This document shows positions 1 through 54,512 of a stretch of 54,512 nt of DNA, piece after piece. Source of the stretch: a virus (Duplodnaviria > Caudoviricetes). The notes beneath the pieces are model-generated. The model was not told the DNA's origin. It saw only the letters and a list, made by a program, of their open reading frames with translations, and did not search any database. Position 1 is the first letter of the stretch, and each line of letters starts with the position of its first letter. Position numbers and translations under genes: made by a program. Location of the stretch: IMG/VR virus record IMGVR_UViG_3300021962_000134, positions 1-54,512 of that record, one strand, 5' to 3'.

Positions 1-288
1 GAATCTAGAACTTCTATGGTTGTCCGTATTAATGAAATGAACATGGATCAGGTGGCGGCAAACTTTGAGACAGTTTATGACGCACAGGCACAGGCGGTAG
101 CAGTGGCTTTAATGACAATGACCGCACCACAATACAAAGATTTAAAACAAATACCAGATGCCAAGTTTTACGACGATGTAACTATTAAAGATAACCGTAA
201 ATTTAAAGACAGGCTCTGGAGTTCTATATACCGAGACGAGAAAGTCTGGGCAGAAATGGTGGATTCGCAATATGAGTACGGAAATTAA
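1..288 (+). CDS. C-terminal fragment of a large exported protein; 5'-truncated, probably the same gene as 53764..54512
   Basis: Frame is open from base 1 (ESRTSMVVRIN...) to TAA at 286-288; overlaps the start of the next gene. Confidence 0.7.
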   Translation, partial: ESRTSMVVRINEMNMDQVAANFETVYDAQAQAVAVALMTMTAPQYKDLKQIPDAKFYDDVTIKDNRKFKDRLWSSIYRDEKVWAEMVDSQYEYGN

Positions 289-1018
289 TATTGGTGGTAT
301 AAAGCTGACTGGTGGCAGGATGTTCGCGGTTTTGACCGCTTTGGGCAGTGCCGCCGGTATTGTTTGGGGAGCTGCACTTTTCTGGGACGACTACGAAGGG
401 TTAAAATCAAAACTTCGTAATCTGGACCCAAAAGCCATTTCCACGCAAGTGGAAACATCTATGATTAAAGTCGAGGAGGCAATTGATTATGCTAGGGCTA
501 TTAAAGAAGATTTACGGGATGATGTTATCGGTGTTGAACAAGCTATGGATGATGTTGAAAATGCTATTCGGGATGTTGAAGGGCGCAATCGTCAAGCTAT
601 ATCAGAAGCTAAAGGGTATTTTGACGAGCGTGTTTCGTTAGTAGATTCCAGAGCGAAAGAAAACGAGATATCTAACCGTAAATATATACAAGAGTTGCAA
701 AAGCAATTTGATGGACGGTTAGATGCTCTTAACACTGCTGCTCGTGGTAATCAAAAAGATGACCAAAAAGCTATGCAAGATTTTAAAACGTGGTTTGAGG
801 GTAGGATAAAAACTGCTGAATCACAGTTTGCAGAGCAGATAAAAGCCGTTAGTGTTCAAATGAAAAACAACGAAGCGGATAATAGGCTGATGGTTGAGAA
901 CGCTCAAAAGTGGGTTGACGGACGGATTGTTTCAATGGATGCTCAGATGAAGGAATTAGAAGAGCGTATGAATAAACGGATTGACCGAGCCTTAACTAAC
1001 ATCTTGGCTGACCAATAA
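272..1018 (+). CDS. Membrane-anchored coiled-coil protein (N-terminal TM, long helical C-terminus)
   Basis: Hydrophobic segment MFAVLTALGSAAGIVWGAALFW followed by ~200 aa of charged heptad-like sequence; directly upstream of the holin. Confidence 0.75.
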   Translation: MSTEINIGGIKLTGGRMFAVLTALGSAAGIVWGAALFWDDYEGLKSKLRNLDPKAISTQVETSMIKVEEAIDYARAIKEDLRDDVIGVEQAMDDVENAIRDVEGRNRQAISEAKGYFDERVSLVDSRAKENEISNRKYIQELQKQFDGRLDALNTAARGNQKDDQKAMQDFKTWFEGRIKTAESQFAEQIKAVSVQMKNNEADNRLMVENAQKWVDGRIVSMDAQMKELEERMNKRIDRALTNILADQ

Positions 1019-1027
1019 GGAGGACAT

Positions 1028-1435
1028 ATGGCAATACCATTTTTAAGTTCATTAATTGAGCCAGTTACAGGGCTTTTAGATAAGGTCATTGAAGATAAAG
1101 ACCAGAAAGCGAAGTTAGCCCATGAAATTGCTACTATGGCTGATCGGCATGCACAAGAGCTGGCATTGGCTCAAGTCGAGGTTAACAAAGCCGAAGCAGC
1201 TAGTAATTCGACTTTTAAAGGCGGTTGGAGACCTTTCGTGGGTTGGGTTTGCGGTACTGCCTTTGCTTATCATTTCGTTATACAGCCTTTGGCTATTTTT
1301 GTTTTGGCTTATTACGGGCTTCAAACTCCTCCTCTACCTGATTTTGACATGGGTCAATTAATGACTGTGCTTATGGGTATGTTAGGTCTTGGCGGTTTGC
1401 GTAGTTTTGAGAAATACAAAGGAGTGACCAAGTAA
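1028..1435 (+). CDS. Holin, 3TM GTA-holin type
   Basis: GGWRPFVGWVCG and LMGMLGLGGLRSFEK motifs with TM segments; AAGGAGG RBS; next to the endolysin. Confidence 0.85.
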   Translation: MAIPFLSSLIEPVTGLLDKVIEDKDQKAKLAHEIATMADRHAQELALAQVEVNKAEAASNSTFKGGWRPFVGWVCGTAFAYHFVIQPLAIFVLAYYGLQTPPLPDFDMGQLMTVLMGMLGLGGLRSFEKYKGVTK

Positions 1436-1578
1436 TGGCCAAAGCATCTTTCAGCGAGAATGCCAGACCTAAAACCGATTTCAAACACAGGACTAGTATT
1501 GGTTACTCATCGAACTCGAGGCCAAGACATAAATACGCCAAAATGAGTTGGAAAAAATACAGAGGGCAAGGCAAATGA
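1435..1578 (+). CDS. Small basic protein, 47 aa, ending KKYRGQGK (not in the ORF track)
   Basis: ATG overlaps the holin stop (TAATG) and TGA overlaps the endolysin ATG; MAKASFSENARPKTDFKHRTSIGYSSNSRPRHKYAKMSWKKYRGQGK. Confidence 0.75.
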   Translation: MAKASFSENARPKTDFKHRTSIGYSSNSRPRHKYAKMSWKKYRGQGK

Positions 1579-2024
1579 GTTTTAAGCTATCCCAGCGCAG
1601 TATCGATAACTTAGACGGGGTCAAAAAAGACCTCGTCGATGTTGTTAAGCGAGCCATTGAAATTACGGAAATAGACTTTGGTGTTACCGAGGGTTTACGA
1701 ACGGTTGAAAAACAGCGAGAATTGTTCGAGAAGGGAGCCAGCCAAACGATGGCAAGTAAGCATATTACAGGTGATGCTGTAGATTTGGTTGCTTATATTG
1801 GACCAAAAGTGTGCTGGGAGCTTAACGTTTATGATGAAATTGCGGATGCGATGCGTCAGTCAGCAGAAGAACTCAATGTGAATTTGCGTTGGGGTGCTGC
1901 TTGGCACAAGAATCTGACTGGTTCCGGAATGACAGGTGAAGACCTAATGAACGAATATATTGATCTGCGTCGTTCGGAAGGGAAAAGACCTTTTATCGAT
2001 GCACCACACTTTGAGTTAGCCTAA
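1575..2024 (+). CDS. Endolysin, M15-family (L-Ala-D-Glu type) peptidase
   Basis: EGLRT..Q, SKH..G.AVD and D.PHFEL zinc-peptidase motifs; start placed at ATG 1575 (MSFKLSQRS) rather than TTG 1548. Confidence 0.88.
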   Translation: MSFKLSQRSIDNLDGVKKDLVDVVKRAIEITEIDFGVTEGLRTVEKQRELFEKGASQTMASKHITGDAVDLVAYIGPKVCWELNVYDEIADAMRQSAEELNVNLRWGAAWHKNLTGSGMTGEDLMNEYIDLRRSEGKRPFIDAPHFELA

Positions 2025-4149: not shown

Positions 4150-5846
4150 TGGCTGTTAATGCATATAATTTATCAGAAACGCCTATAGTAGATCAGCTAG
4201 GCATACAAATGAGACCATTGGAAGGTCTTGAAGGAGTTGGCGCCCTTGGTGAACTTCCTCCTTATAAAGAAGGATATGACCCAAATATACAATTGGACAT
4301 TAAGAGGATGCCTGGACCAGATTACGTTGAGCAACAAGAAACCATACCGATTTATCAAATACAGTCTCAGACTCCAGACCCATATATTAATCTGCAAGAC
4401 GTATATGGAACATCATATATGCCGATGTTCGAGTGGGTTAAAAAGATACAGGTCGGTGAGAAGCTCTACGACCCTTTTTCTCCGGAAGATTCAGAGCTAG
4501 TAGAACAATATAAAGAATTTGTTGATAAATATGGTGTTCCAGAAGGATTGCCAGACCCATACGACTGGAAAGCAATAGGCAAAGAAGTCGGCAAAGCAAC
4601 CCTAGTCGCATCCGCACCATCAATAGCTGGGAACATATTAGGAGCTGCAACAGACCCATACATAACTGGTGGTGCTGGGGAAAGGTTCATGGCAGGAGCA
4701 AAACAATTTTTGCCATTCACAGACCCGTTGCCTTCAGAGATAGTTGGATTGGAAGCTGCAAAAGGCATGGACCTAGTCGGTAAGCTTGGTTCTAACGAAG
4801 TATTCATCCCAGAACTTGCCAACAAAGCAGCAGCAGAGGCTTCTGGTAACCTAAACCTTTATAACGCATTGAATGCTGGTGATGCATCTACCGCCGTTTT
4901 TAATCCAACTGGGATGCAGTTTCAAGCCGGTGCAAGGACTGTTGGTGGGCAACAAGTTTATAACGCAGATATACTGGCAAATAATGGTGTGTTTGCCAAC
5001 GCAGATGGTAGCGTAACTTTAGCAAAAGGCTCTGGTGCCAACATATCCAACATGAGCAAAGCTATCACAGCCAATACACAGCCTGTTGGATATTTGGCAG
5101 GAGTTAAAGATAAATTATATGGTGCTCAAGCTGGACAGACTTGGGGGCAAGCTGGAACTATGGCTCTAGTCAGTTTCGGTTTAAACGTAGCCACAGGCAT
5201 GAAACCAGTGGAAGCTGCAAAATCCGCAGGAGCATCAGCTGTGGCATATGCATTAGGAACTGCACTCTTTGGACCAGTTGGTGGCTGGATTGCTTCCACA
5301 GTTCTAGCCAAGCCTATCCAGAAAGCCGGATCAAAACTTGTTAAAGAAACCAAAGGTGCGCTAGATAGCGTCGGAGATTTCGTTGGTGATATATTCGGTG
5401 GTGCCGCAAGTGGATTTGAAAAAGCAGGTTCAGCAGTTTCTTCAGGACTTGGGAAAGTTGCTGACACTGTTTCGGACGTCGCTAAGAAAGTTACTGGCAG
5501 GGTTATCTGTAACGAACTACGTCGACAAGGATTGCTTGAGACCAAGCACGTTCTGCTCGATTACAAGTTCACCAAAGAACATCTCACTCCACAGCACGTT
5601 GCTGGATACCATTTCTGGGCTGTTAACGTTGTTAAACGTCTCAGAAAAGGCAAAGGTGTTAAGTTTTGGAAACACATCGCCGGACACAGAGCCAATGAGA
5701 TCGCGTATATCTACGGCGAGCGCGACAAGCCGGATTATCTGGGCAAGTTGTACAGGAAGATTTTTGAACCTGTTTGCTGGGGCATCGGGCTATTCTGCAA
5801 AGAAACAGATTGGTCCGTACTTTATGAAGATAAGGAGATTTGCTAA
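4149..5846 (+). CDS. Putative internal virion protein with C-terminal VICNEL/GYHxWA domain
   Basis: 565 aa; Gly/Ala-rich hydrophobic helices, then a discrete basic domain from 5502. Confidence 0.6.
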   Translation: MAVNAYNLSETPIVDQLGIQMRPLEGLEGVGALGELPPYKEGYDPNIQLDIKRMPGPDYVEQQETIPIYQIQSQTPDPYINLQDVYGTSYMPMFEWVKKIQVGEKLYDPFSPEDSELVEQYKEFVDKYGVPEGLPDPYDWKAIGKEVGKATLVASAPSIAGNILGAATDPYITGGAGERFMAGAKQFLPFTDPLPSEIVGLEAAKGMDLVGKLGSNEVFIPELANKAAAEASGNLNLYNALNAGDASTAVFNPTGMQFQAGARTVGGQQVYNADILANNGVFANADGSVTLAKGSGANISNMSKAITANTQPVGYLAGVKDKLYGAQAGQTWGQAGTMALVSFGLNVATGMKPVEAAKSAGASAVAYALGTALFGPVGGWIASTVLAKPIQKAGSKLVKETKGALDSVGDFVGDIFGGAASGFEKAGSAVSSGLGKVADTVSDVAKKVTGRVICNELRRQGLLETKHVLLDYKFTKEHLTPQHVAGYHFWAVNVVKRLRKGKGVKFWKHIAGHRANEIAYIYGERDKPDYLGKLYRKIFEPVCWGIGLFCKETDWSVLYEDKEIC

Positions 5847-6172
5847 TGGCAATGATGGAAGAACAAATGATGATGGAAGGCGCGTCTATGCCTAGAGGTG
5901 AAGGTATGCAGATGCCTAGCATGGAACAGGCTATCCCGCCAGAAGCGATGCAGATGATGATGCAACCGGATGACGCAATAACTTCTGTGCTTTTGGTCAG
6001 ACTTAACAGCATGACGGAACAGGATTTGGCTCTTTTGGATAAAGTTATAACCAAAGAGGCAGCACCAGTTTTAATGAAGTTGTTACCAGAGTTCAAAGAT
6101 ATATTTGAAGCAATCTCAGCCAGAGAAGAACAACCAGAAGGATCAGATATGGGAGCACTGGGCGGTCTTTAA
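5846..6172 (+). CDS. Hypothetical Met-rich acidic protein
   Basis: AAGGAG RBS and TAATG overlap at 5846; ends MGALGGL. Confidence 0.7.
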   Translation: MAMMEEQMMMEGASMPRGEGMQMPSMEQAIPPEAMQMMMQPDDAITSVLLVRLNSMTEQDLALLDKVITKEAAPVLMKLLPEFKDIFEAISAREEQPEGSDMGALGGL

Positions 6173-6612
6173 TGCAAATTAGAAGGGCAAACATTTTAGA
6201 CATTAGCCCGTTGCTCGCTATGTTATACACAATGCATAACGAGACAGAAATTAAAGTTCCGGAGATAAATCCGGCAAAACTCTCGGTAAAGGTCAATGAC
6301 GCTATAAACCGAGGGGCTGTAGTTGTGGCTATGAATGACCAAAATAAGTTGTTAGGATCAATTGGCGGTATCGTAAGTAGCGATTGGTGGTCAGAGGAAA
6401 CATTCCTAGCAGATATGTGGTTTTATGTTTACCCGATGCATCGTAGTAGTTCAGCAGCAATAAAGTTGGTTAAGGAGTTTTTAAAAATAGGGCAAGAGGC
6501 TAAACTTCCAGTAAGATTAGGTCATATCTTCTCGGGAGACTTGGACCGTAAAGACAAGTTATTTGAGCGTCTTGGTTTAATTAAAGCTGGTTGCGTTTTC
6601 GTGGAGAGTTAA
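6172..6612 (+). CDS. GNAT-family acetyltransferase
   Basis: MQIRRA..DI start, FYVYP.HR acyl-CoA motif, LFERLG end. Confidence 0.8.
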   Translation: MQIRRANILDISPLLAMLYTMHNETEIKVPEINPAKLSVKVNDAINRGAVVVAMNDQNKLLGSIGGIVSSDWWSEETFLADMWFYVYPMHRSSSAAIKLVKEFLKIGQEAKLPVRLGHIFSGDLDRKDKLFERLGLIKAGCVFVES

Positions 6613-7599
6613 ATGGGCGGTTTATGTACAACTGGGGTTGAGACCCTACCAGATCCAAGGCTGGTTATTACCGGAACAGAGATACCTGAGTGGGTGTCGG
6701 CTGGCGGTCAAAAACTTTTCCAACAGGCAGCATCACTAGCTGAAAGTCCTTACCCGACTTACACAGGTCCAAGGATCGCGAGCTACGACGGATCGAAGCT
6801 GACCGCCGAGGAACGGCAAGCTGCACAAATGCTGACCGAAGGGGCTACCAGCTACCAACCTTATATTGACGAGTCTTATGCGAGAAGCATGCAGTTAGGT
6901 CAGGGTTATAACCCGATGACTGCTGAACAGCTCATGGGACAGCAATTCAGTATTGAAGAGGCACAGCCTTATATAGATATGTACCAAAGGGCGATGGACC
7001 CTGCGGTTGAAGAGATACAAAGACAGCTGGATCGTAAACTGATCGCTGACCGAGCAAAGGCAGTTGGGTCAGGCGCATTCGGCGGATCTCGGGCATACAT
7101 TGGTGAGATCGAATCAGCTGGTGAGGCAGCACGATCTGCGGCAGCATTAAGAAAACAGGCTGGGGTTGAAGGTTTAGGTTTTGCAGCTCAACAGCGAGAA
7201 CAAGACCGAGCAGCTAGGTTCGGAGCAGAGCAGGCACGACGTGGTGCTTACGAAACCGAAGAATCAGCCAGAATCAGTGCAGCTCAACAGATCGGACAAT
7301 TTGCTCCGGTGATACAAGGCTTACAGCAACAAGCAGCATCTGGACTTTTGAGCGCAGGGGAAGCAAAACGAACGCTCGATCAGATGGCTCTCGACTTGGC
7401 ATATGCAGATTATGTCGAGCAACGTGAGTACCCGTTCCAGATGGTTAACTACGCGCTGGGAGCATTGAAGGGTGTTCCATATGAAACAACCCAGACGAGC
7501 TTGCAACAAGGTCAGCAATACATTCAGACGCCTAGCATTTACGGTCAAACAATTGGTGGGCTTGGAGCTCTCGCTAGTGCTTACTACTTGAACCGATAA
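6613..7599 (+). CDS. DNA pilot/ejection protein
   Basis: MGG start, Ala/Gln-rich helices, GAFGGSR motif and C-terminal GGLGALAS; position among internal virion genes. Confidence 0.65.
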   Translation: MGGLCTTGVETLPDPRLVITGTEIPEWVSAGGQKLFQQAASLAESPYPTYTGPRIASYDGSKLTAEERQAAQMLTEGATSYQPYIDESYARSMQLGQGYNPMTAEQLMGQQFSIEEAQPYIDMYQRAMDPAVEEIQRQLDRKLIADRAKAVGSGAFGGSRAYIGEIESAGEAARSAAALRKQAGVEGLGFAAQQREQDRAARFGAEQARRGAYETEESARISAAQQIGQFAPVIQGLQQQAASGLLSAGEAKRTLDQMALDLAYADYVEQREYPFQMVNYALGALKGVPYETTQTSLQQGQQYIQTPSIYGQTIGGLGALASAYYLNR

Positions 7600-45404: not shown

Positions 45405-46811
45405 ATGGCTTCTGCTCGCAAAGCTAAAGGGAAAAAGTCAGTCGCTATAAGCGACATATCTGGCTTTAAAGTCCCATATAAAGAACTCAAGACTACTTGG
45501 GAAGGCTTTCGAGTAGAGCCAGAGGAGTACGATCCTAAGCAACCCCAGCTAACCCCACCCCGAAATGTTATCGACGCAACCGCGCTGTTTAAACCGCGTC
45601 CTGACACAGATCCTGAGAACGTAGAGATTTACATCGGTTATACATTTGACCCGTTCATCCCTATTCAACAAAGACCAGGAGTTGGAATTGGTTCTTTGGG
45701 TAGTGTTGGTTATGCTGGCAATGTCAGATATGACTACGTTTTCAATGTAACTGGGGTTTCGTCCACTGGCGCGATTGGAACTGTAACCATATCTGATAAC
45801 GAAGATGTGGTGACTACAGGGGTGGCTGCAACCGGAGCAGTTGAAGGGTTTGGAATTACCGGAAACGGTAATGTGATGATCATCGCAACTGGAATCTCTG
45901 GTGTTGGCGCAGTTGGAACAACAGGTGTTGAAACTCCGGGAACTGACGCAGTAGTCACAGGAGTGGCATCGACAGGTGCAATTGGAACAGTATCGCTTTA
46001 CATATCTCTGGATGCATATGTAACTGGAGTCTCTTCTACAGGAGCAACAGGAACTGAAGTTCTTGAAGGTGAGATTACCGAGACTGGGGTTGCCGGAACT
46101 GGTGCAATCGGAACTGAAGTCCCAGAGTCAGAGATAACTGAAACAGGCGTAGCTGCAACTGGAGCAATCGGAACTGAGAGCATTAGCGCAGGGGTGACAA
46201 TCACCGAGACTGGGGTTTCCGCGACTGGTGCAACTGGAACTGTATCACCAGAGTCTGAAATAACCGAGACTGGGGTTGCTGCAACTGGTGCGATAGGAAT
46301 TGAAATACCAGAATCAGAGATATCCGAGACTGGGGTAGCAACAACAGGTCAAGTTGAAGGCTTTGGAATATCAGGTAACGGTAACATCCAGATCATTGCA
46401 ACTGGTATCTCAGGAACTGGCGCAACTGGTAATGTCGGTCTTGAGGAAGCAACCGCTATCATTAATGAATCTAACAATACTGGCTGGGGCGAGCAGGATT
46501 GGGGCGAAGACATATGGGGCGGGCAACCTGAAATTGTTGCTTATGGCGATATTGGAACTGTTTCAATTGATGTGTTCATCGGTCCAAACGTAACAGGTGT
46601 TGCTGGAACTGGAAATGTAGGCTCAGAAACTCCAGAGGCTGAAATAACTGAAACAGGCGTGGCTGCAACAGGTAACATTGGAACAATCAGCAACGAAACT
46701 GAAGAGAGCATCACTGGACTAAGCTCAACCGGAGCAATAGGAACAGCACAAGCATACGTCGATCCGGGATGGGGCGAGGGTACTTGGAGTGAAGGAGATT
46801 GGGGTGAATAA
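45405..46811 (+). CDS. Virion protein: globular N-terminal domain plus acidic TGV.ATGA.G repeats
   Basis: SDISGF..PY.EL...W.G..V...EYDPKQPQL, then tandem ~20-aa repeats and WG motifs. Confidence 0.7.
   Translation: MASARKAKGKKSVAISDISGFKVPYKELKTTWEGFRVEPEEYDPKQPQLTPPRNVIDATALFKPRPDTDPENVEIYIGYTFDPFIPIQQRPGVGIGSLGSVGYAGNVRYDYVFNVTGVSSTGAIGTVTISDNEDVVTTGVAATGAVEGFGITGNGNVMIIATGISGVGAVGTTGVETPGTDAVVTGVASTGAIGTVSLYISLDAYVTGVSSTGATGTEVLEGEITETGVAGTGAIGTEVPESEITETGVAATGAIGTESISAGVTITETGVSATGATGTVSPESEITETGVAATGAIGIEIPESEISETGVATTGQVEGFGISGNGNIQIIATGISGTGATGNVGLEEATAIINESNNTGWGEQDWGEDIWGGQPEIVAYGDIGTVSIDVFIGPNVTGVAGTGNVGSETPEAEITETGVAATGNIGTISNETEESITGLSSTGAIGTAQAYVDPGWGEGTWSEGDWGE
46020..46350 (+). 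repeat. Tandem ~60-nt coding repeats (EITETGVAATGAIGTE.PES)
   Basis: ACCGAGACTGGGGT recurs at about 46077, 46203, 46263 and, with one change, 46323; related units flank them. Confidence 0.8.
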
Positions 46812-49155: not shown

Positions 49156-51576
49156 ATGACCGGAATACTCCAGATTGTCCTAAGTGCTTTCCAAAGCGGA
49201 ACCCCATTAGATATTGATTATCTAGTTATTGCCGGAGGTGGTGGTGGCGGCGGAGGCAATGTCAACAATGGTGGCGGAGGAGGAGCTGGTGGATACAGAA
49301 CCTCTGCTGGTACTTCTGGAGGCGGTGGATCTGCCGAAACTACTTTTAAAGCGTCAGTTGGACAAGCATACACAATTACTGTAGGAGCGGGTGGATCTGG
49401 TGGACAAGCCTCTGATGATGCTTCTGGAGTTGGTAATAATGGTTCAAACTCTGTTTTAGGATCAATTACTTCACTTGGTGGTGGAGGTGGAGGTGCTTTC
49501 CAAAACAACGGATCTAGCGGTGGTTCTGGTGGTGGAGGTGGTGGTTCTGCCTCTGCTGGAGCTGGAACTGCTAACCAAGGATACGCAGGAGGAAATGGAA
49601 TTGGTGGCGGAGGAGGAGCTGGTGCTGTCGGTGGTAATGGTAATCCAAATCCCGGAGGTACAGGTGTCTCTTCTTCAATAACTGGAAGTGCTGTCACTAG
49701 AGGTGGCGGTGGCGGTGGATCAGCTTTTGGTTCTGCTGGTGGATCAGGTGGCGGTGGAACGGGTGGTAACTATAATCCGGGATCTGATTCAAGTGCAGGC
49801 ACTGCCAATACAGGCGGTGGTGGCGGTGGTAATGGATACCATGTACCCGGAGTTGGAGGAACAGGCTCAACAGGCGGTTCTGGAGTTGTAATTCTAAAAG
49901 TTCCAACAACCCATAGCGCATTTTTCTCTAGTGGTGTTACTTATTCTGTTAGCACTTCAGTTTCCGGTTACAACATTTATACAGTAACCGCTACATCGAC
50001 CACATCGGAGACCGTTACATTCTCTGAGGGTGTTTCTGCTGACTATTTAGTTGTTGGATCTGGTGGTGGTGGAAAAAACTATCAGGGTGGAGGTGGTGGT
50101 GAGGTTAGTTCGTACAATAATCAAAGTTTTTTACTTGAAACAGCTTATACAGTTACAGTAGGTGCTGGTGGCGCGATAAATACTGACGGTAATGATTCTG
50201 TCTTTATAAACACAGCAAGTAAAGGATTTCGCGGAAGTCAGGTAAATAGTTTTGCTGTTGCTGGTACGAGCGGAAGTGGTAATGCTGGAGGTGTTGGAGC
50301 TAACCTTGGCAACCCGTTTTTAGGTGGTGGCGGTGGTGGTGATTCTGCCGTTGGTGGAAATTCTTCCGGATCAACATCGGGATCAGGCGGTGCAGGAACT
50401 GCTAATTCAATCACAGGATCAAGTGTTACAAGAGGTGGCGGTGGCGGAGCTGGTGTAGAAGGCAGTGGATCTCGCGGCACTGGTGGTGCAGGCGGTGGTG
50501 GTAATGGCTCTGGCCCTAATTCTAATAATGGTTCAGCAGGAAGCGCAAACACAGGCGGTGGTGGCGGTGGTGGAGATGGTGGGAACACAAATAGTGGATA
50601 TGCCGGAGGTTCTGGTGTTGTAATTATTAAAGTTCCAAATAACGTAGCAGCAGTTTTCTCTGGTGGTGTAACTTCATCACTTTCAACCGCTGTGTCGGGT
50701 TACAGAGTTTATTCTGTAACTGCAACAAGCACCACAAGCGAAACAGTTACTTTTGTTCAAGACTTCCCTGCTAATATCCTTGCTCAAGCAGGTGGTGGAG
50801 GTAGTGGTAATGGTACTGTTCCCGGATCTCCCGGAACAGGTGGTGGAGGTGGAGCTGGCGGCTTAGTCTATGCTGAGAATTATTATCTTGCTGTAGGAAC
50901 ATCTTATACTGTTACAGTAGGTGGCGGAGGAGGTGCTCAATCTAACGGTAGCAACTCTGTATTTGGTCCTGCAACTGCAAACGGTGGCGGTGCTGGTCAA
51001 CAAACTGGAACAGGATCAACAGGTGGTTGTGGTGGCGGAGCTGGAACAAATCCGTTTGGTACAGCATACCCTGCAGCACCAAGTAATCAATCGTCAACTC
51101 CAGCTACAGGCTTTACTGGGTATGGTAATGCTGGTGGATATCGTGTTATTTATGGCGGGTCTGGCGGTGGTGGAGGTACTGGTGCTGCTGGTCAAGGTGA
51201 AGGTTCTAGGGCAGGTGGAGTTGGTAGAGATTACTCTTCAGTATTTGGTTCAAGCGTTGGAGACTCTGGGTACTTTGGTGGTGGCGGTGGAGGAGCTGCT
51301 GGAGGACCGGGAGGTACTGGTGGTGGCGGTAATGGCATCACAAATGGACAAGGAATTTTTGGAACAGCTAATACCGGAGGAGGTGGTGGGGGTACTCACA
51401 ATTATTCGCCGGGATCGTCAGGTGGTTCTGGAGTAGTTTTGATTAAAGTACCAGACACAAGAACTGCTAACTTCTCAGGTGGTGTAACTTATTCTACTGA
51501 TACATCTATGACTGGATATAAGATATATGAGGTAACCGCAACTTCAACTACATCTGAAACAGTATATTTCACATAA
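49156..51576 (+). CDS. Glycine-rich tail fibre/adhesin with three repeated modules
   Basis: Three units of YLV.AGGG ... ANTGGGGGG ... GGSGVVI.KVP ... VTATSTTSETV.F. Confidence 0.8.
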   Translation: MTGILQIVLSAFQSGTPLDIDYLVIAGGGGGGGGNVNNGGGGGAGGYRTSAGTSGGGGSAETTFKASVGQAYTITVGAGGSGGQASDDASGVGNNGSNSVLGSITSLGGGGGGAFQNNGSSGGSGGGGGGSASAGAGTANQGYAGGNGIGGGGGAGAVGGNGNPNPGGTGVSSSITGSAVTRGGGGGGSAFGSAGGSGGGGTGGNYNPGSDSSAGTANTGGGGGGNGYHVPGVGGTGSTGGSGVVILKVPTTHSAFFSSGVTYSVSTSVSGYNIYTVTATSTTSETVTFSEGVSADYLVVGSGGGGKNYQGGGGGEVSSYNNQSFLLETAYTVTVGAGGAINTDGNDSVFINTASKGFRGSQVNSFAVAGTSGSGNAGGVGANLGNPFLGGGGGGDSAVGGNSSGSTSGSGGAGTANSITGSSVTRGGGGGAGVEGSGSRGTGGAGGGGNGSGPNSNNGSAGSANTGGGGGGGDGGNTNSGYAGGSGVVIIKVPNNVAAVFSGGVTSSLSTAVSGYRVYSVTATSTTSETVTFVQDFPANILAQAGGGGSGNGTVPGSPGTGGGGGAGGLVYAENYYLAVGTSYTVTVGGGGGAQSNGSNSVFGPATANGGGAGQQTGTGSTGGCGGGAGTNPFGTAYPAAPSNQSSTPATGFTGYGNAGGYRVIYGGSGGGGGTGAAGQGEGSRAGGVGRDYSSVFGSSVGDSGYFGGGGGGAAGGPGGTGGGGNGITNGQGIFGTANTGGGGGGTHNYSPGSSGGSGVVLIKVPDTRTANFSGGVTYSTDTSMTGYKIYEVTATSTTSETVYFT

Positions 51577-51585
51577 GGACATAAC

Positions 51586-51981
51586 ATGGCGCATTTTGCA
51601 AAATTAGATGAAAACAATATCGTGGTCTATGTCACAGTTGGTCGTGATGAAGATAACGGCAAAGAAGATGAGCTGACTGCTCGAACTGGGGATGTGTATA
51701 AACAAACGTCTTATAATACAAAAGGCGGTGTTCATTACGACCCAGAAACAAATGAGCCAAGCGCAGATCAATCCAAAGCGTTCAGAAAAAATTATGCTGG
51801 ACTAGGTTATACCTACGATGCTGGCAGGGATGCTTTTATTCCACCAAAGCCGTTTGCTTCTTGGGTGCTTAATGAGACAACGTGCTTATGGGATGCGCCA
51901 ATTCCTCTTCCATCAGATAGCGATACTGTTGAATACATTTGGGACGAAGACACTACGTCTTGGGTAGTTTACAATCCATGA
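51586..51981 (+). CDS. Conserved protein accompanying Gly-rich fibres (assembly chaperone-like)
   Basis: MAHFAKLD, QTSYN, FRKNYAG.G..YD...DAFIPPKP..SW.L....C.W.AP...YIWDE. Confidence 0.75.
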   Translation: MAHFAKLDENNIVVYVTVGRDEDNGKEDELTARTGDVYKQTSYNTKGGVHYDPETNEPSADQSKAFRKNYAGLGYTYDAGRDAFIPPKPFASWVLNETTCLWDAPIPLPSDSDTVEYIWDEDTTSWVVYNP

Positions 51982-52580
51982 TATTCGGACTTTTTGCTAC
52001 ACCAATTGGACGACATGATATTGAAAGAGAATTAACAGAAAAGGAAATTTCTTTTGTTAAAAATCTGGAAACAACAAAAAATGAAGGCAATGTTAATAGT
52101 GTAAATACTTACATTTTAAATGAGCCAGAGTTAAAAGATATAAATGAATTTTTAGAGACAAAGGTTAAAGAATATTTTTTAGAAACATATATACCTAAAG
52201 ATGATTTTGATTTAGCAATAACACAATCTTGGTCAAATGTTACTAAAAAAGATGAATATCACCACAAACATAGTCATGCAAATTCACTTATATCTGGAGT
52301 TTTTTATGTTCAAGCGGATGAAAACAAAGACAAAATACATTTTTTTAAAGAACAGATTAATACGTTAGATGTATATTCTGAAAATTTTAATGAGTGGAAT
52401 GCGCAAAGTTGGTGGTTTCCAGTTAAAACAGGACAACTTTTTTTGTTTCCCTCAAGATTACATCACATGGTAGAACGTTTAGATCATGATCAAGAAAGAA
52501 TTAGCATAGCGTTTAATACATTCCCATACGGTTTGTTAGGTAGGAAAGAAAGTTTAACTCAACTCAAAGTTAACAGGTGA
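51978..52580 (+). CDS. Putative 2OG-Fe(II) oxygenase (TIGR02466-like)
   Basis: SW.N, H.H.NS..SGVFY, LFPS.L.H.V, RISIAFN; start ATG 51978 overlaps the upstream stop. Confidence 0.85.
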   Translation: MIFGLFATPIGRHDIERELTEKEISFVKNLETTKNEGNVNSVNTYILNEPELKDINEFLETKVKEYFLETYIPKDDFDLAITQSWSNVTKKDEYHHKHSHANSLISGVFYVQADENKDKIHFFKEQINTLDVYSENFNEWNAQSWWFPVKTGQLFLFPSRLHHMVERLDHDQERISIAFNTFPYGLLGRKESLTQLKVNR

Positions 52581-52583
52581 TTA

Positions 52584-52781
52584 ATGAAACTTATTAAAGT
52601 TACAAATGCAACAAAAGGAAGGATAGGGGAAGGTCTAATAATTAACACTGACCTTATTGTTTCTTTTTTTGAGCACACTCAAGAAGATGGTGAAAAGGTG
52701 ACTGTTGCTTTCGGGATGAATAATAATACTTGGGAAATTAAAGAAACCATAGACGAAATAAACGCTTTGATACAAGAATGA
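52584..52781 (+). CDS. Small protein, FlbD-like pattern
   Basis: MKLIKVT...IN.D.I....E...T...KETIDEI. Confidence 0.55.
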   Translation: MKLIKVTNATKGRIGEGLIINTDLIVSFFEHTQEDGEKVTVAFGMNNNTWEIKETIDEINALIQE

Positions 52782-52990
52782 ACGAACAGAACATCAGCCC
52801 TAAAGAATTTGGCGCATTACAAGCAGACGTTAAGAACCTTGCACGAGAGATCAGTTTGCTACGCAAAGATATGGCGCAAGTGAACGCGGTGATCAATCAA
52901 AGCAGAGGTGGGATTTATGTTGTGATGTTTGTCGCAGGATTAATCGGTTCTGCGATCACATTAGGTATTAAAAAGTTGCTGGGGCTGTGA
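52778..52990 (+). CDS. Coiled coil plus C-terminal TM protein
   Basis: FG.L.A.V..L...GGIYVVMFVAGLIGSAITL. Confidence 0.7.
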   Translation: MNEQNISPKEFGALQADVKNLAREISLLRKDMAQVNAVINQSRGGIYVVMFVAGLIGSAITLGIKKLLGL

Positions 52991-53211
52991 TGACAGCCGA
53001 AGCGTTTTTAAAATTAAAAATACTGCCCCGATTAATGATGGCGATCATGACCGTTATGAGTTGGCGAGTGGTGGAATGGTTCATGACTTTGCCAGACCCA
53101 AGTCCTAGTCAAGCTGGGTTGGTATCGGTGGTGACAGGAGCGATGACTGGTGCTTTTGCGATTTGGATGAACCATGAAAAAGAATCCTCGAGACCCGCTA
53201 GTCAGCCTTAA
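52987..53211 (+). CDS. Two-TM membrane protein (holin-like)
   Basis: ILPRLMM...WFM.LPDP...QAGLVSVVTGAMTGAFAIWM. Confidence 0.7.
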   Translation: MMTAEAFLKLKILPRLMMAIMTVMSWRVVEWFMTLPDPSPSQAGLVSVVTGAMTGAFAIWMNHEKESSRPASQP

Positions 53212-53785
53212 AAATTTAATAAGCATTGGATCTTTTTTATTAATTGTTCCAACCAATGCTTTTGCCGTAGATACTGTAACCAGCAGCACTGTCTCGAGCA
53301 CTGTCTCGAGTTCCTCTAACACCGTCGGGACTACAACCGTAGACCGCACCCCATCAACCGCCAGCTCACCGAGCATCAGTGTGATTAACTCTGATATCTG
53401 TACAACGGGGGTTTCTGGTGCAGTGCAAACACAGATATTTGGTATCTCTGGTGGAACAACCATTCGAGATGTGAACTGCGAAAACTTAAAATTATCCAGA
53501 CAGCTTTACGCTATGGGTATGAAGGTTGCAGCTGTGGCTTTGCTTTGTGAAGCGGATTACAGAGTGTTTCAGGCAATGTGGGATGCTGGGACTTATTGTC
53601 CTATTGACGGGCTGATTGGTAAAAAAGCTAAAACCCAATGGCTGGCGAACCTAGATCGAGTTCCAGATGGTGCATTGGTTAACGAAAAACAAAAGGTTGC
53701 AATGCTTTACGAAGAAGGTCTGAAGAAAGATCGTGAAGCTCGTTCAGATAAAGCTAAACAGCAATGGCCTCACTACGCCCGTTAA
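53174..53785 (+). CDS. Exported Cys-containing protein
   Basis: Signal-like LLIVPTNAFA, Ser/Thr linker, C..G.SGAVQTQ..G.S.G....D.NCE.LKLSR.LY.MGMKVAAVALLC...AGT.CP. Confidence 0.75.
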   Translation: MKKNPRDPLVSLKNLISIGSFLLIVPTNAFAVDTVTSSTVSSTVSSSSNTVGTTTVDRTPSTASSPSISVINSDICTTGVSGAVQTQIFGISGGTTIRDVNCENLKLSRQLYAMGMKVAAVALLCEADYRVFQAMWDAGTYCPIDGLIGKKAKTQWLANLDRVPDGALVNEKQKVAMLYEEGLKKDREARSDKAKQQWPHYAR

Positions 53786-54512
53786 TATTCCTGCTAGTCC
53801 CCAGCATTGGTTTTTGCCAAGAGACCACAGAGAATCTTATTGATGATACTCAATGGGAGATCGACGGAGATGTGGACTTTTGGCAATATGATAATGATAG
53901 CGTTGTATGGGTATATACCAACACTGAAGCCACAGTTTCTCAAAGCATAGATTTAAGTGCTTATGATTACATCGGGGATATTCGTTATGGGATGTCGTCT
54001 TACGGATGTAACAACACTCCTAGTGGAGCATGGTGCGATCAAACCACTGACACTAGTTACTACGACACAATCACTGTGAAGGTCGAGTACGGTGGTGAGA
54101 CTTATACAGATATCGTAACGCTGAATTACAATAATTACTTCGTGGACTATTCTTTCTCGTTCACAGCTACAGCCGACTACGACACAGCCACGATCAGCTT
54201 CACAGCACAAGACGTTGGGGGCTGGAGCGGTTACTATGCCAGCGCGACCAAAGATGTGTTTTTTGAGCTTGACTACAATACTTACACTGATCTGATACTT
54301 ATAGATCCGACCATAACCAATCCTGATCCAGTGGACATTGCGTTTGTTGATCCAGTTGATGTGGCTGATTCAATCGGGGATGTTTCGATTATGGATGTTC
54401 CAGTTGTAGACATCCCAGATATCACGATGGATATGCCAGTCGAGCCAATTGCAACCGATATGAGCGCAGACATGGGGGCAATAGACATCCCAGATATGCA
54501 GATCGAAGAGAT
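53764..54512 (+). CDS. Large exported acidic protein, 3'-truncated (not in the ORF track)
   Basis: MASLRPLIFLLVPSIGFCQETTENLID... stays open to the window end; beta-rich domain followed by an Asp/Pro/Ile low-complexity linker. Confidence 0.8.
   Translation, partial: MASLRPLIFLLVPSIGFCQETTENLIDDTQWEIDGDVDFWQYDNDSVVWVYTNTEATVSQSIDLSAYDYIGDIRYGMSSYGCNNTPSGAWCDQTTDTSYYDTITVKVEYGGETYTDIVTLNYNNYFVDYSFSFTATADYDTATISFTAQDVGGWSGYYASATKDVFFELDYNTYTDLILIDPTITNPDPVDIAFVDPVDVADSIGDVSIMDVPVVDIPDITMDMPVEPIATDMSADMGAIDIPDMQIEE

Follow-up and report, generated by a model that had tools for sequence, protein, structure and literature searches.

Phages that lack spanins pose an open question, namely how they get through the outer membrane; 10.1101/515445 puts the share of such phages among those of Gram-negative hosts at ~15%. 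The locus described here bears on that question. It lies in the IMG/VR virus record IMGVR_UViG_3300021962_000134, positions 1 to 54,512 (hereafter the window), where a run of exported and membrane protein genes is joined to a holin and an endolysin gene. We refer to the genes of this cassette, in order, as B, C, D, E, F, holin, H and endolysin. An initial annotation, made from the DNA alone, had proposed that the cassette encodes a trans-envelope complex, either a substitute for spanins or a surface-remodelling or exclusion apparatus. The statement best supported by the comparisons below is that D, E and F are a conserved and mobile three-protein exported or membrane-anchored module of phage lysis cassettes.

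Conservation of the D-E-F triad

An IMG/VR scan with D gave 165 confirmed relatives; 80 loci were kept, and D, E and F were called in them with profile hidden Markov models. According to the initial annotation, its proposal would fall if the three open reading frames (ORFs) beginning at 53174, 53764 and 272 of the window did not occur together elsewhere. They do, and in fixed order: among the 53 of the 80 loci with at least 3 kb 3' of D, an E-type C-terminus directly follows D in 52, F is present in 50, and both are present in 49. The four exceptions to the E and F triad are L059, L064, L067 and L068. In an independent collection of species-representative genomes, D is followed by F in 20 of 36 loci, most of the remainder being short contigs, and all 36 loci are on contigs of metagenome-assembled genomes (MAGs) or single cells. 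The host taxa given by this collection were not used, as binning errors probably account for labels like Actinomycetota or Methanobacteriota. By reading, phage-type auxiliary genes are present on the 335-kb contig from which locus L113 comes.

A hydrophobic 17-mer occurs in 12 of the 82 window ORFs (greedy ORF set). Five of the 12 (B, C, D, F and holin) are adjacent across the junction of the window ends, E, which lies between them, being unscored in this count, and two more are antisense ORFs within E. The clustering of membrane and exported genes is not chance. That unrelated small genes or spurious ORFs just happen to lie together here, a reading favored only by the lack of functional annotation, is scarcely conceivable: across dozens of loci the homologues, 42-98% identical, retain their frame, order and features.

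The triad is found in podophages (the window and HTVC115P), in the siphophage HTVC202P, which has a tape-measure gene, and in the T4-like myophage Mosig. It is also present in HTVC023P, in the order D-E-51 amino acids (aa)-F-M15; HTVC202P, HTVC023P and Mosig are cultured Pelagibacter phages. In HTVC202P the triad is directly 5' of the large terminase gene, and in Mosig it lies beside primase and ribonucleotide reductase (RNR) genes. That the triad crosses virion types argues against a structural role, which is unlikely. In the window and in HTVC115P the module is flanked on one side by tail-fibre genes and on the other by genes that encode a virion structural protein, an acyltransferase and a DNA ejection protein. 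From this position D, E and F could be taken for virion or DNA-ejection proteins whose hydrophobic N-termini would serve for membrane insertion at infection. The siphophage and myophage locations speak against this, as do the classical cleavable-type signal peptides of D and E, the conserved cysteine pairs of D, which are typical of exported proteins, and the endolysins and holins that are neighbours in most loci. We regard it as very improbable.

No named PHROG, Pfam or PDB relative was found for D, E or F. Co-folding of F with residues 55-203 of D and the C-terminus of E gave a score of 0.00 against a mark of 0.32 (a single job, run without controls), a result that speaks neither for nor against a complex.

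Genome and the break inside gene E

The window is the sole contig of its assembly, with 44.9% G+C and zero N. It represents a marine podophage of the HMO-2011 type, in circularly permuted form; among named phages, Puniceispirillum phage HMO-2011 and Pelagibacter phages of the HMO-2011 type are closest to it. The late operon, on the plus strand, runs from ~30.7 kb through the window end to ~12 kb, so that the cassette must be read across both ends. The initial annotation had drawn one ORF across them, from 53764 to 288; this is indeed one gene, E, but direct joining of the ends puts it out of frame.

IMG/VR contig L003, which has 93-94% nucleotide identity to the window and is colinear with both its ends, resolves the discrepancy. 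In L003, 201 nucleotides (nt) separate the last base of the window from its third base; thus 199 nt are absent from the window. Adding them restores the frame of E exactly, and E of L003 is one ORF of 411 aa (L003 7591-8826). Contigs from four public DNA runs, one of which may be the window's own sample, bridge the missing stretch on L003 with zero indels. A normal spanin pair in the missing segment was the other finding named in the initial annotation as fatal to its proposal. It was rejected, since the missing 199 nt lie entirely within E and leave no room for a hidden spanin.

E is split into two ORFs in L034 3089-4596 (404+83 aa) and in L080 2072-3327 (69+371 aa), by frameshift or by assembly error in a low-complexity region, the same type of region as that of the assembly break in the window. 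Sequencing runs X9 and X13-X18, with freshwater, estuary, marine and oyster labels, contained 0.37-0.92 of the sampled words of window 52778-54512, and close phage relatives therefore appear across salinities. The RNA runs X19 and X20 contained <0.1 of the words.

Protein D

D (53174-53785, plus strand, 203 aa) has a signal peptide, a Ser/Thr-rich linker, a conserved domain of ~105 aa with 4 Cys and a charged helical tail. Its N-terminal hydrophobic stretch ends in AFA, with V after the predicted cleavage site (signal-peptide cleavage sites were read by eye using the -3/-1 rule). D matches phrog_20531 (1.6e-10), of unknown function, and has no Pfam or NCBIfam family, no named PHROG relative and no PADLOC match. 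The family comprises 2864 clusters at 90% identity (E<=0.001), none of them named, and in the Atlas D falls in unnamed viral clusters only. D sequences are 42-98% identical across our sample, with C76 and C102 invariant.

Among 179 unique D sequences, 176 carry a signal peptide or lipobox. The signal peptide is plain in 142, is combined with a C-terminal membrane helix in 27 and is lipobox-like in 7. With 7 of 179 sequences, a lipobox-like signal was rejected as a general trait of D. Three of these seven (L023, L028 and L040) have both the lipobox and a C-terminal helix. A unimolecular spanin of the T1 gp11 type unites in one protein a lipobox at the N-terminus and a membrane helix at the C-terminus. 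The three D homologues share this layout with T1 gp11, which is named as a unimolecular spanin in 10.1101/515445; D of the window has neither a lipobox Cys nor a C-terminal hydrophobic segment, and D is accompanied by E and F.

The model of D has a mean predicted local distance difference test (pLDDT) score of 67.6, and a helical core, approximately residues 100-200, is modeled at pLDDT 82-93. There was no PDB sequence match and no Foldseek match at E<=0.001, and fold comparison by VIA-align gave a best Z of 3.6, which involves one long helix only.

Protein E

The 5' part of E (53764-54512, plus strand; net charge -42) encodes a signal peptide, a predicted beta jelly roll and the start of an acidic Pro/Asp/Val-rich linker, and the 3' part (1-288, plus strand) encodes a conserved C-terminal ~70 aa with the end ...MVDSQYEYGN. 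The homologues are 351-739 aa long, and an N-terminal hydrophobic stretch is present in 47 of 48. Variable sequence makes up the N-terminal two thirds; next come a low-complexity charged linker and the conserved last ~70 aa, ending ...(M/L)(V/I)DxQ(Y/W). In an alignment of 39 C-termini, taken from the gene after D, Q31 and Q90 are invariant. Every E holds a 100-aa stretch with at least 61% D/E/K/P/T/S/Q.

E has no Pfam or NCBIfam family, no named PHROG relative and no PADLOC match. A profile of the C-terminal part retrieved 263 longer proteins, none with a Pfam domain, and a single-sequence search with E among 1.84 billion representatives retrieved only 19 relatives. Three proteins of the E family are labeled 'outer membrane biosynthesis protein TonB' by one source; this label rests on low-complexity sequence, and they have no TonB or TolA Pfam domain. 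Proteins of the TonB/TolA type span the periplasm by means of a membrane anchor and a long, charged, proline-rich low-complexity spacer. The module likewise has an anchored component and a charged, proline-rich low-complexity spacer, but its anchor (F) and its spacer (E) are on separate proteins.

In the model of the 411-aa E of L003, residues 18-175 form a beta sandwich at a pLDDT of ~90, and the remainder is predicted to be disordered or is of low confidence. The best fold match of this N-terminal domain is the sugar-binding domain of Fbs1 (2e33_A; Z 14.2, root mean square deviation 2.7, 137 aligned residues), followed by the carbohydrate-binding modules CBM61 (2xom_A, Z 13.4) and CBM16 (2zew_A, Z 12.6) and by further carbohydrate-binding modules. 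Distal domains of phage proteins are matched as well, namely tailspike 4 (TSP4) of CBA120 (Z 11.4) and the tail fibre of the Klebsiella phage Kp7 (Z 11.0). Foldseek E-values for the domain range from 5e-7 to 5e-6. We are confident that the modeled N-terminal domain is a beta jelly roll that shares its fold with solved sugar-binding modules. A fold shared between a model and such modules is no proof of sugar binding by E. The domain has no Pfam CBM match, and in sequence it does not resemble the tail-fibre proteins that the window itself encodes.

Protein F

F (272-1018, plus strand) is a 248-aa protein with a hydrophobic segment at residues 18-36 and a type-II-like layout with a predicted coiled-coil stalk. 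The initial annotation had credited it with the topology of an i-spanin, and the family bears this out: outside the segment the protein is charged and helical-repeat-like, and all 42 unique homologues (139-292 aa) have an N-terminal hydrophobic segment or membrane helix. The conserved parts are the N-terminus, the membrane helix, the juxtamembrane part and a C-terminal ALxN(P/I)L motif; the coiled-coil stalk is variable in length. The coiled coil was deduced from composition and from weak coiled-coil matches (Spectrin_7, 0.0057; ZorA tail, 3.7e-5). F has no Pfam or NCBIfam family and no PHROG function. Two database results were set aside. In the Atlas (named clusters only) the best match, at a score of 0.87, was a viral cluster of which 16% of the members have Tup_N, and this was taken as coiled-coil noise, and PADLOC matches to ZorA (3.7e-5 and 0.0025) involved the coiled-coil tail only and were treated as compositional.

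Conservation in F is highest in and around the membrane helix, from the short N-terminal part in the cytoplasm to the juxtamembrane stretch, which suggests a specific membrane partner such as a holin. This pattern would suit a regulator of lysis timing, in which D-E-F would be a periplasmic sensor or antiholin coupling the state of the envelope to the holin via the F helix. RI and RIII of T4 follow a comparable logic. A three-transmembrane (3TM) holin is near in at least 26 of the 80 loci, and the small membrane proteins B and C are encoded in the same operon. However, D-E-F have no similarity to known antiholins, the module is away from a recognised holin in HTVC115P and HTVC202P, and three genes, among them one for a variable sugar-binding-like protein of 351-739 aa, would be a heavy apparatus for timing. 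We consider a timing regulator quite improbable.

Association with lysis genes

Endolysins were sought in the fetched flanks with four seeds only, and the counts of lysis genes are therefore lower bounds. In the flanks of the 80 loci we found a 3TM holin in at least 26 and an endolysin in at least 37, the endolysins belonging to unrelated families (8 M15, 26 GH24 and 3 GH19). A holin or lysin is present in at least 40 of the 80 loci and in at least 25 of the 36 with at least 6 kb downstream.

The arrangement of the genes varies. The order is B-C-D-E-F-holin-H-M15 in the window and L003, holin-H-D-E-F-M15 in L006-L009, D-E-F-H-(B)-...-GH24-holin in many pelagiphage-like loci, D-E-F-holin-like-GH24 in L070 and L076-L081, and holin-D-E-F-B in Mosig. 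HMO-2011 has a cassette of a B-like protein, a cationic protein, a holin, C and a lysozyme, without D-E-F. It therefore looks as if D-E-F had been inserted into a lysis cassette that these phages share, in the window between B and C on one side and the holin, H and endolysin genes on the other.

Lipoproteins and spanins

The initial annotation had found no lipoprotein with a clear lipobox, and this stands: three scans of the whole window on both strands gave no credible lipobox ORF, only antisense or embedded short ORFs. As controls, Rz1 and Bor of lambda were recovered by one of the window scans and by a scan of HTVC202P, and Bor only by the relaxed window scan. A credible lipoprotein gene was also not found in the first 50 of the 54.8 kb of HTVC115P, in the complete HTVC202P genome or in HMO-2011. 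D, E and F have no spanin match in PHROG or Pfam.

Compared with the Rz/Rz1 spanins of lambda, the module is similar in being part of a lysis cassette, in the i-spanin layout of F with its conserved distal end, and in having tightly linked or overlapping partner genes. It differs in that there is no lipoprotein partner here, and that the genes of the partners, two Sec-exported non-lipoproteins of 203 and 411 aa, precede that of F instead of following it.

These features led us to consider an envelope-spanning assembly with a function late in lysis. F would be held in the inner membrane, its N-terminus facing the cytoplasm and its coiled-coil stalk extending into the periplasm and ending in the conserved NPL-type motif. 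E would be exported by Sec, and its variable jelly roll would bind a glycan of the host envelope, for example peptidoglycan or an outer-membrane-linked polysaccharide; its low-complexity linker of ~150 residues would span the periplasm, and the conserved C-terminal ~70 residues would dock onto the phage partners. D would be an exported, disulfide-stabilised adaptor that docks onto F and that in some phages has a C-terminal membrane anchor of its own. We infer that the three proteins could form a complex which acts after the holin and endolysin and removes the outer envelope layers without a lipoprotein, either in the manner of a spanin or beside one. In this lipoprotein-free phage, D-E-F may supply the outer-membrane step, alone or with H. 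In its general form, an inner-membrane-anchored, periplasm-spanning and glycan-binding assembly that is spanin-like or works beside a spanin, this is the reading that we tentatively prefer, although we would put it a little short of an even chance.

Several observations weigh against it. The 111-kb contig L073 encodes, at 5437-6733, a 138-aa Rz-like i-spanin (phrog_8821, 5e-5), an overlapping 88-aa lipoprotein o-spanin (phrog_456, 1.3e-6) and a GH19 endolysin directly 5' of D-E-F; with an Rz/Rz1-like pair beside it, the module is not simply an alternative to spanins. Some lipobox ORF is present on the strand of the module in the flanks of 13 of the 80 loci. Credible small lipoproteins among these loci are one of 79 aa in L010, L011, L015, L016 and L017, one of 60 aa in L050 and L051, and a Cys-rich one of 59 aa in L053 (9671-9850), whose ORF starts 18 nt after the F stop. 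None of these small lipoproteins has a PHROG spanin match, and the L053 protein might serve the F of its lineage as an o-spanin-like partner. HMO-2011 lacks both D-E-F and a credible lipoprotein, so that lysis without the module is presumably possible for a phage of its group. A long distance separates the annotated lysozyme or M15 genes of HTVC115P and HTVC202P from D-E-F. By hhalign, the F profile has a probability of 0.1 against lambda Rz and 0.3 against the i-spanin of L073; as there are many spanin families, the dissimilarity of F to those of Rz does not bear on function. It is not obvious how a Sec-exported, sugar-binding-like domain in the periplasm would reach the outer leaflet of the outer membrane. 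Finally, the outer-membrane step has a rival candidate in the cationic peptide H.

Of the spanin substitute put forward in the initial annotation, the lysis-gene neighbours, the topology of F and the missing lipoprotein thus remain in its favor, and the L073 pair, the small lipoproteins elsewhere, HMO-2011 and the rival H count against it. Strict replacement of spanins by D-E-F is weakened.

The cationic peptide H

H (1435-1578, plus strand) is a 47-aa peptide with a net charge of +11, encoded between the holin and endolysin genes. Homologues are present in 21 loci, including gp50 of HTVC115P (L002); they are 44-47 aa long, have a net charge of +11 to +15, mostly lie directly after F, and share the motif (K/R)TSIG...S(W/F)KKY(R/N)(G/R)QG. 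By reading, H has few hydrophobic residues and two prolines. Several other very basic ORFs of 38-51 aa, with no sequence relation to H, lie beside D-E-F or the endolysin in other lineages, namely in L015 (6765-6890, 9660-9809 and 10580-10833) and in L085 (7877-8032 and 8867-9007). Small cationic peptides seem to be a recurrent trait of these cassettes.

In 10.1101/515445, gp28 of phiKT is reported to be a non-spanin outer-membrane disruptor of 56 aa and charge +7, encoded between the endolysin and holin genes, and is described as amphipathic-helical and without homologues. H resembles this disruptin in being small and strongly cationic, in its location between holin and endolysin and in belonging to a phage without lipoprotein genes. 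It differs in its few hydrophobic residues, its prolines and its conserved motif, and D-E-F has no counterpart in phiKT. Thus H, conserved in 21 loci, may perform the outer-membrane step in a disruptin-like manner, and D-E-F would then be a late surface, receptor-masking or exclusion device. In this reading, E would bind the host glycan that the phage has as its receptor, so that progeny would not be lost on debris or superinfection would be blocked. The variable N-terminal domain of E, with the fold of sugar-binding modules that include the distal domains of phage tailspikes and fibres, is compatible with such a device, as are the occurrence of D-E-F beside canonical spanins in L073 and the absence of D-E-F from HMO-2011.

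Yet a peptide poor in hydrophobic residues, with two prolines and a strict motif, is unlike an amphipathic antimicrobial helix, and H, being directly after F in most loci, travels with the module. The E domain has no sequence similarity to the tail fibres of the window, D and E have no PADLOC defence match, and a route for E across the outer membrane is not evident. All 36 matches in the genome collection are on MAG or single-cell contigs and not in isolate prophages, a poor fit to a lysogenic exclusion gene. We consider this combination of roles unlikely. For the surface-remodelling or exclusion apparatus of the initial annotation as such, the comparisons give neither support nor contradiction.

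Returning to the envelope-spanning assembly that we tentatively prefer, a further analogy is offered by LysZ of corynephages and mycobacteriophages, described in 10.1101/2025.06.24.661397 as an extra lysis-cassette membrane factor, a fourth lysis function, against an envelope glycopolymer barrier and not against the wall or the outer membrane as such. A lysis function aimed at a glycopolymer would fit a sugar-binding-like E. LysZ, compared here by description only, is in contrast a single membrane protein and concerns another type of host envelope.

Other genes of the cassette and its surroundings

All eight ORFs listed in the initial annotation are present and overlap or are tightly spaced, and its joining of exported and membrane genes to lysis genes corresponds to one tight operon, B-C-D-E-F-holin-H-endolysin, across the window ends. 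From B to endolysin, successive genes overlap by 4, 38, 22 and 17 nt, are then separated by a gap of 9 nt, and overlap again by 1 and 4 nt.

B (52778-52990, plus strand, 70 aa) has a hydrophobic segment at residues 46-64 and appears to be tail-anchored, with an N-terminal coiled-coil-like part. B-like ORFs are found in 9 of the 80 IMG/VR loci, usually after F, and by reading the same layout is repeated in gp60 of HMO-2011 and in Mosig 4318-4746. An NCBIfam match of B to MakA was ignored (18.6 bits against a cut-off of 320). C (52987-53211, plus strand, 74 aa) has a strong hydrophobic segment at residues 43-61 and a weaker N-terminal one. It matches phrog_10198 (3.6e-13), of unknown function, is present in 6 of the 80 loci and is possibly holin- or antiholin-like. 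C is 72% identical to the ORF directly 5' of the HMO-2011 lysozyme (L001 5968-6168). In the HMO-2011 record (46023-46223 region) only gp57, of 37 aa, is annotated 5' of the lysozyme, and the ORF there reaches 66 aa from a GTG. With the 66-aa ORF being 72% identical to C, the deposited gp57 is probably truncated at its 5' end.

The holin (1028-1435, plus strand) is assigned by its profile matches to GTA_holin_3TM (PF11351, 83 bits against a cut-off of 24.8; phrog_3427, 1.1e-33). The endolysin (1575-2024, plus strand, with an ATG at 1575) is predicted to be of the M15 peptidase type (phrog_465, 8e-59; PF13539, 24.5 bits against a cut-off of 25); it has no hydrophobic segment and no signal or signal-arrest-release (SAR) sequence.

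The cassette is preceded on its 5' side by tail-fibre-like genes and a 2-oxoglutarate (2OG)-Fe(II) oxygenase gene. An 806-aa protein (49156-51576) that consists largely of glycine runs, presumably a tail fibre or appendage, contains three repeats of a module ending ...GSGVV(I/L)(I/L)KVP...(V/I)TATSTTSETV(T/Y)F. Between the fibre genes and the cassette are a widespread small phage protein (51586-51981; phrog_7759, 5.7e-39) and the 2OG-Fe(II) oxygenase (51939-52580; phrog_81, 1.8e-43). L003 holds two different oxygenase-like genes at the position of 51586-52580, so this spot is variable.

On the 3' side, the cassette is followed by genes that encode a virion structural protein, an acyltransferase and a DNA ejection protein, and after the last of these come two genes for large unknown proteins. 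The acetyl/acyltransferase gene (6172-6612; phrog_1249, 2.6e-15) is directly 5' of that for the DNA ejection protein (6613-7599; phrog_4287), and its counterpart in HTVC115P, gp46, is annotated as a 'toxin-activating lysine-acyltransferase'. The location of this gene and the annotation of gp46 suggest lipid acylation of an internal or ejection protein, which would prepare it for insertion into a membrane.

Significance

The D-E-F module was not described in the published work that we found on pelagiphage spanins, spaninless phages and lysis cassettes. The main text of a survey of HMO-2011-type phages (PMC9038755) never mentions holin, endolysin, spanin, signal peptide or transmembrane, and its supplementary orthologous groups might list the genes.

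Spanins and disruptins may not be the only machines for outer-membrane disruption. D-E-F could be a third one, with three components and no lipoprotein, in which the sugar-binding-like domain of E would replace the lipid anchor of the o-spanin; we regard this stronger proposal as somewhat unlikely. HMO-2011-type phages are among the commonest viruses in the sea. The module is abundant and is present in cultured SAR11 phages as well as in HMO-2011-type phages, and three large protein families of marine viromes gain a context as exported and lysis-cassette-linked proteins. If the proposal is true, D-E-F would explain how 'spaninless' abundant ocean phages, including those of SAR11, finish lysis.

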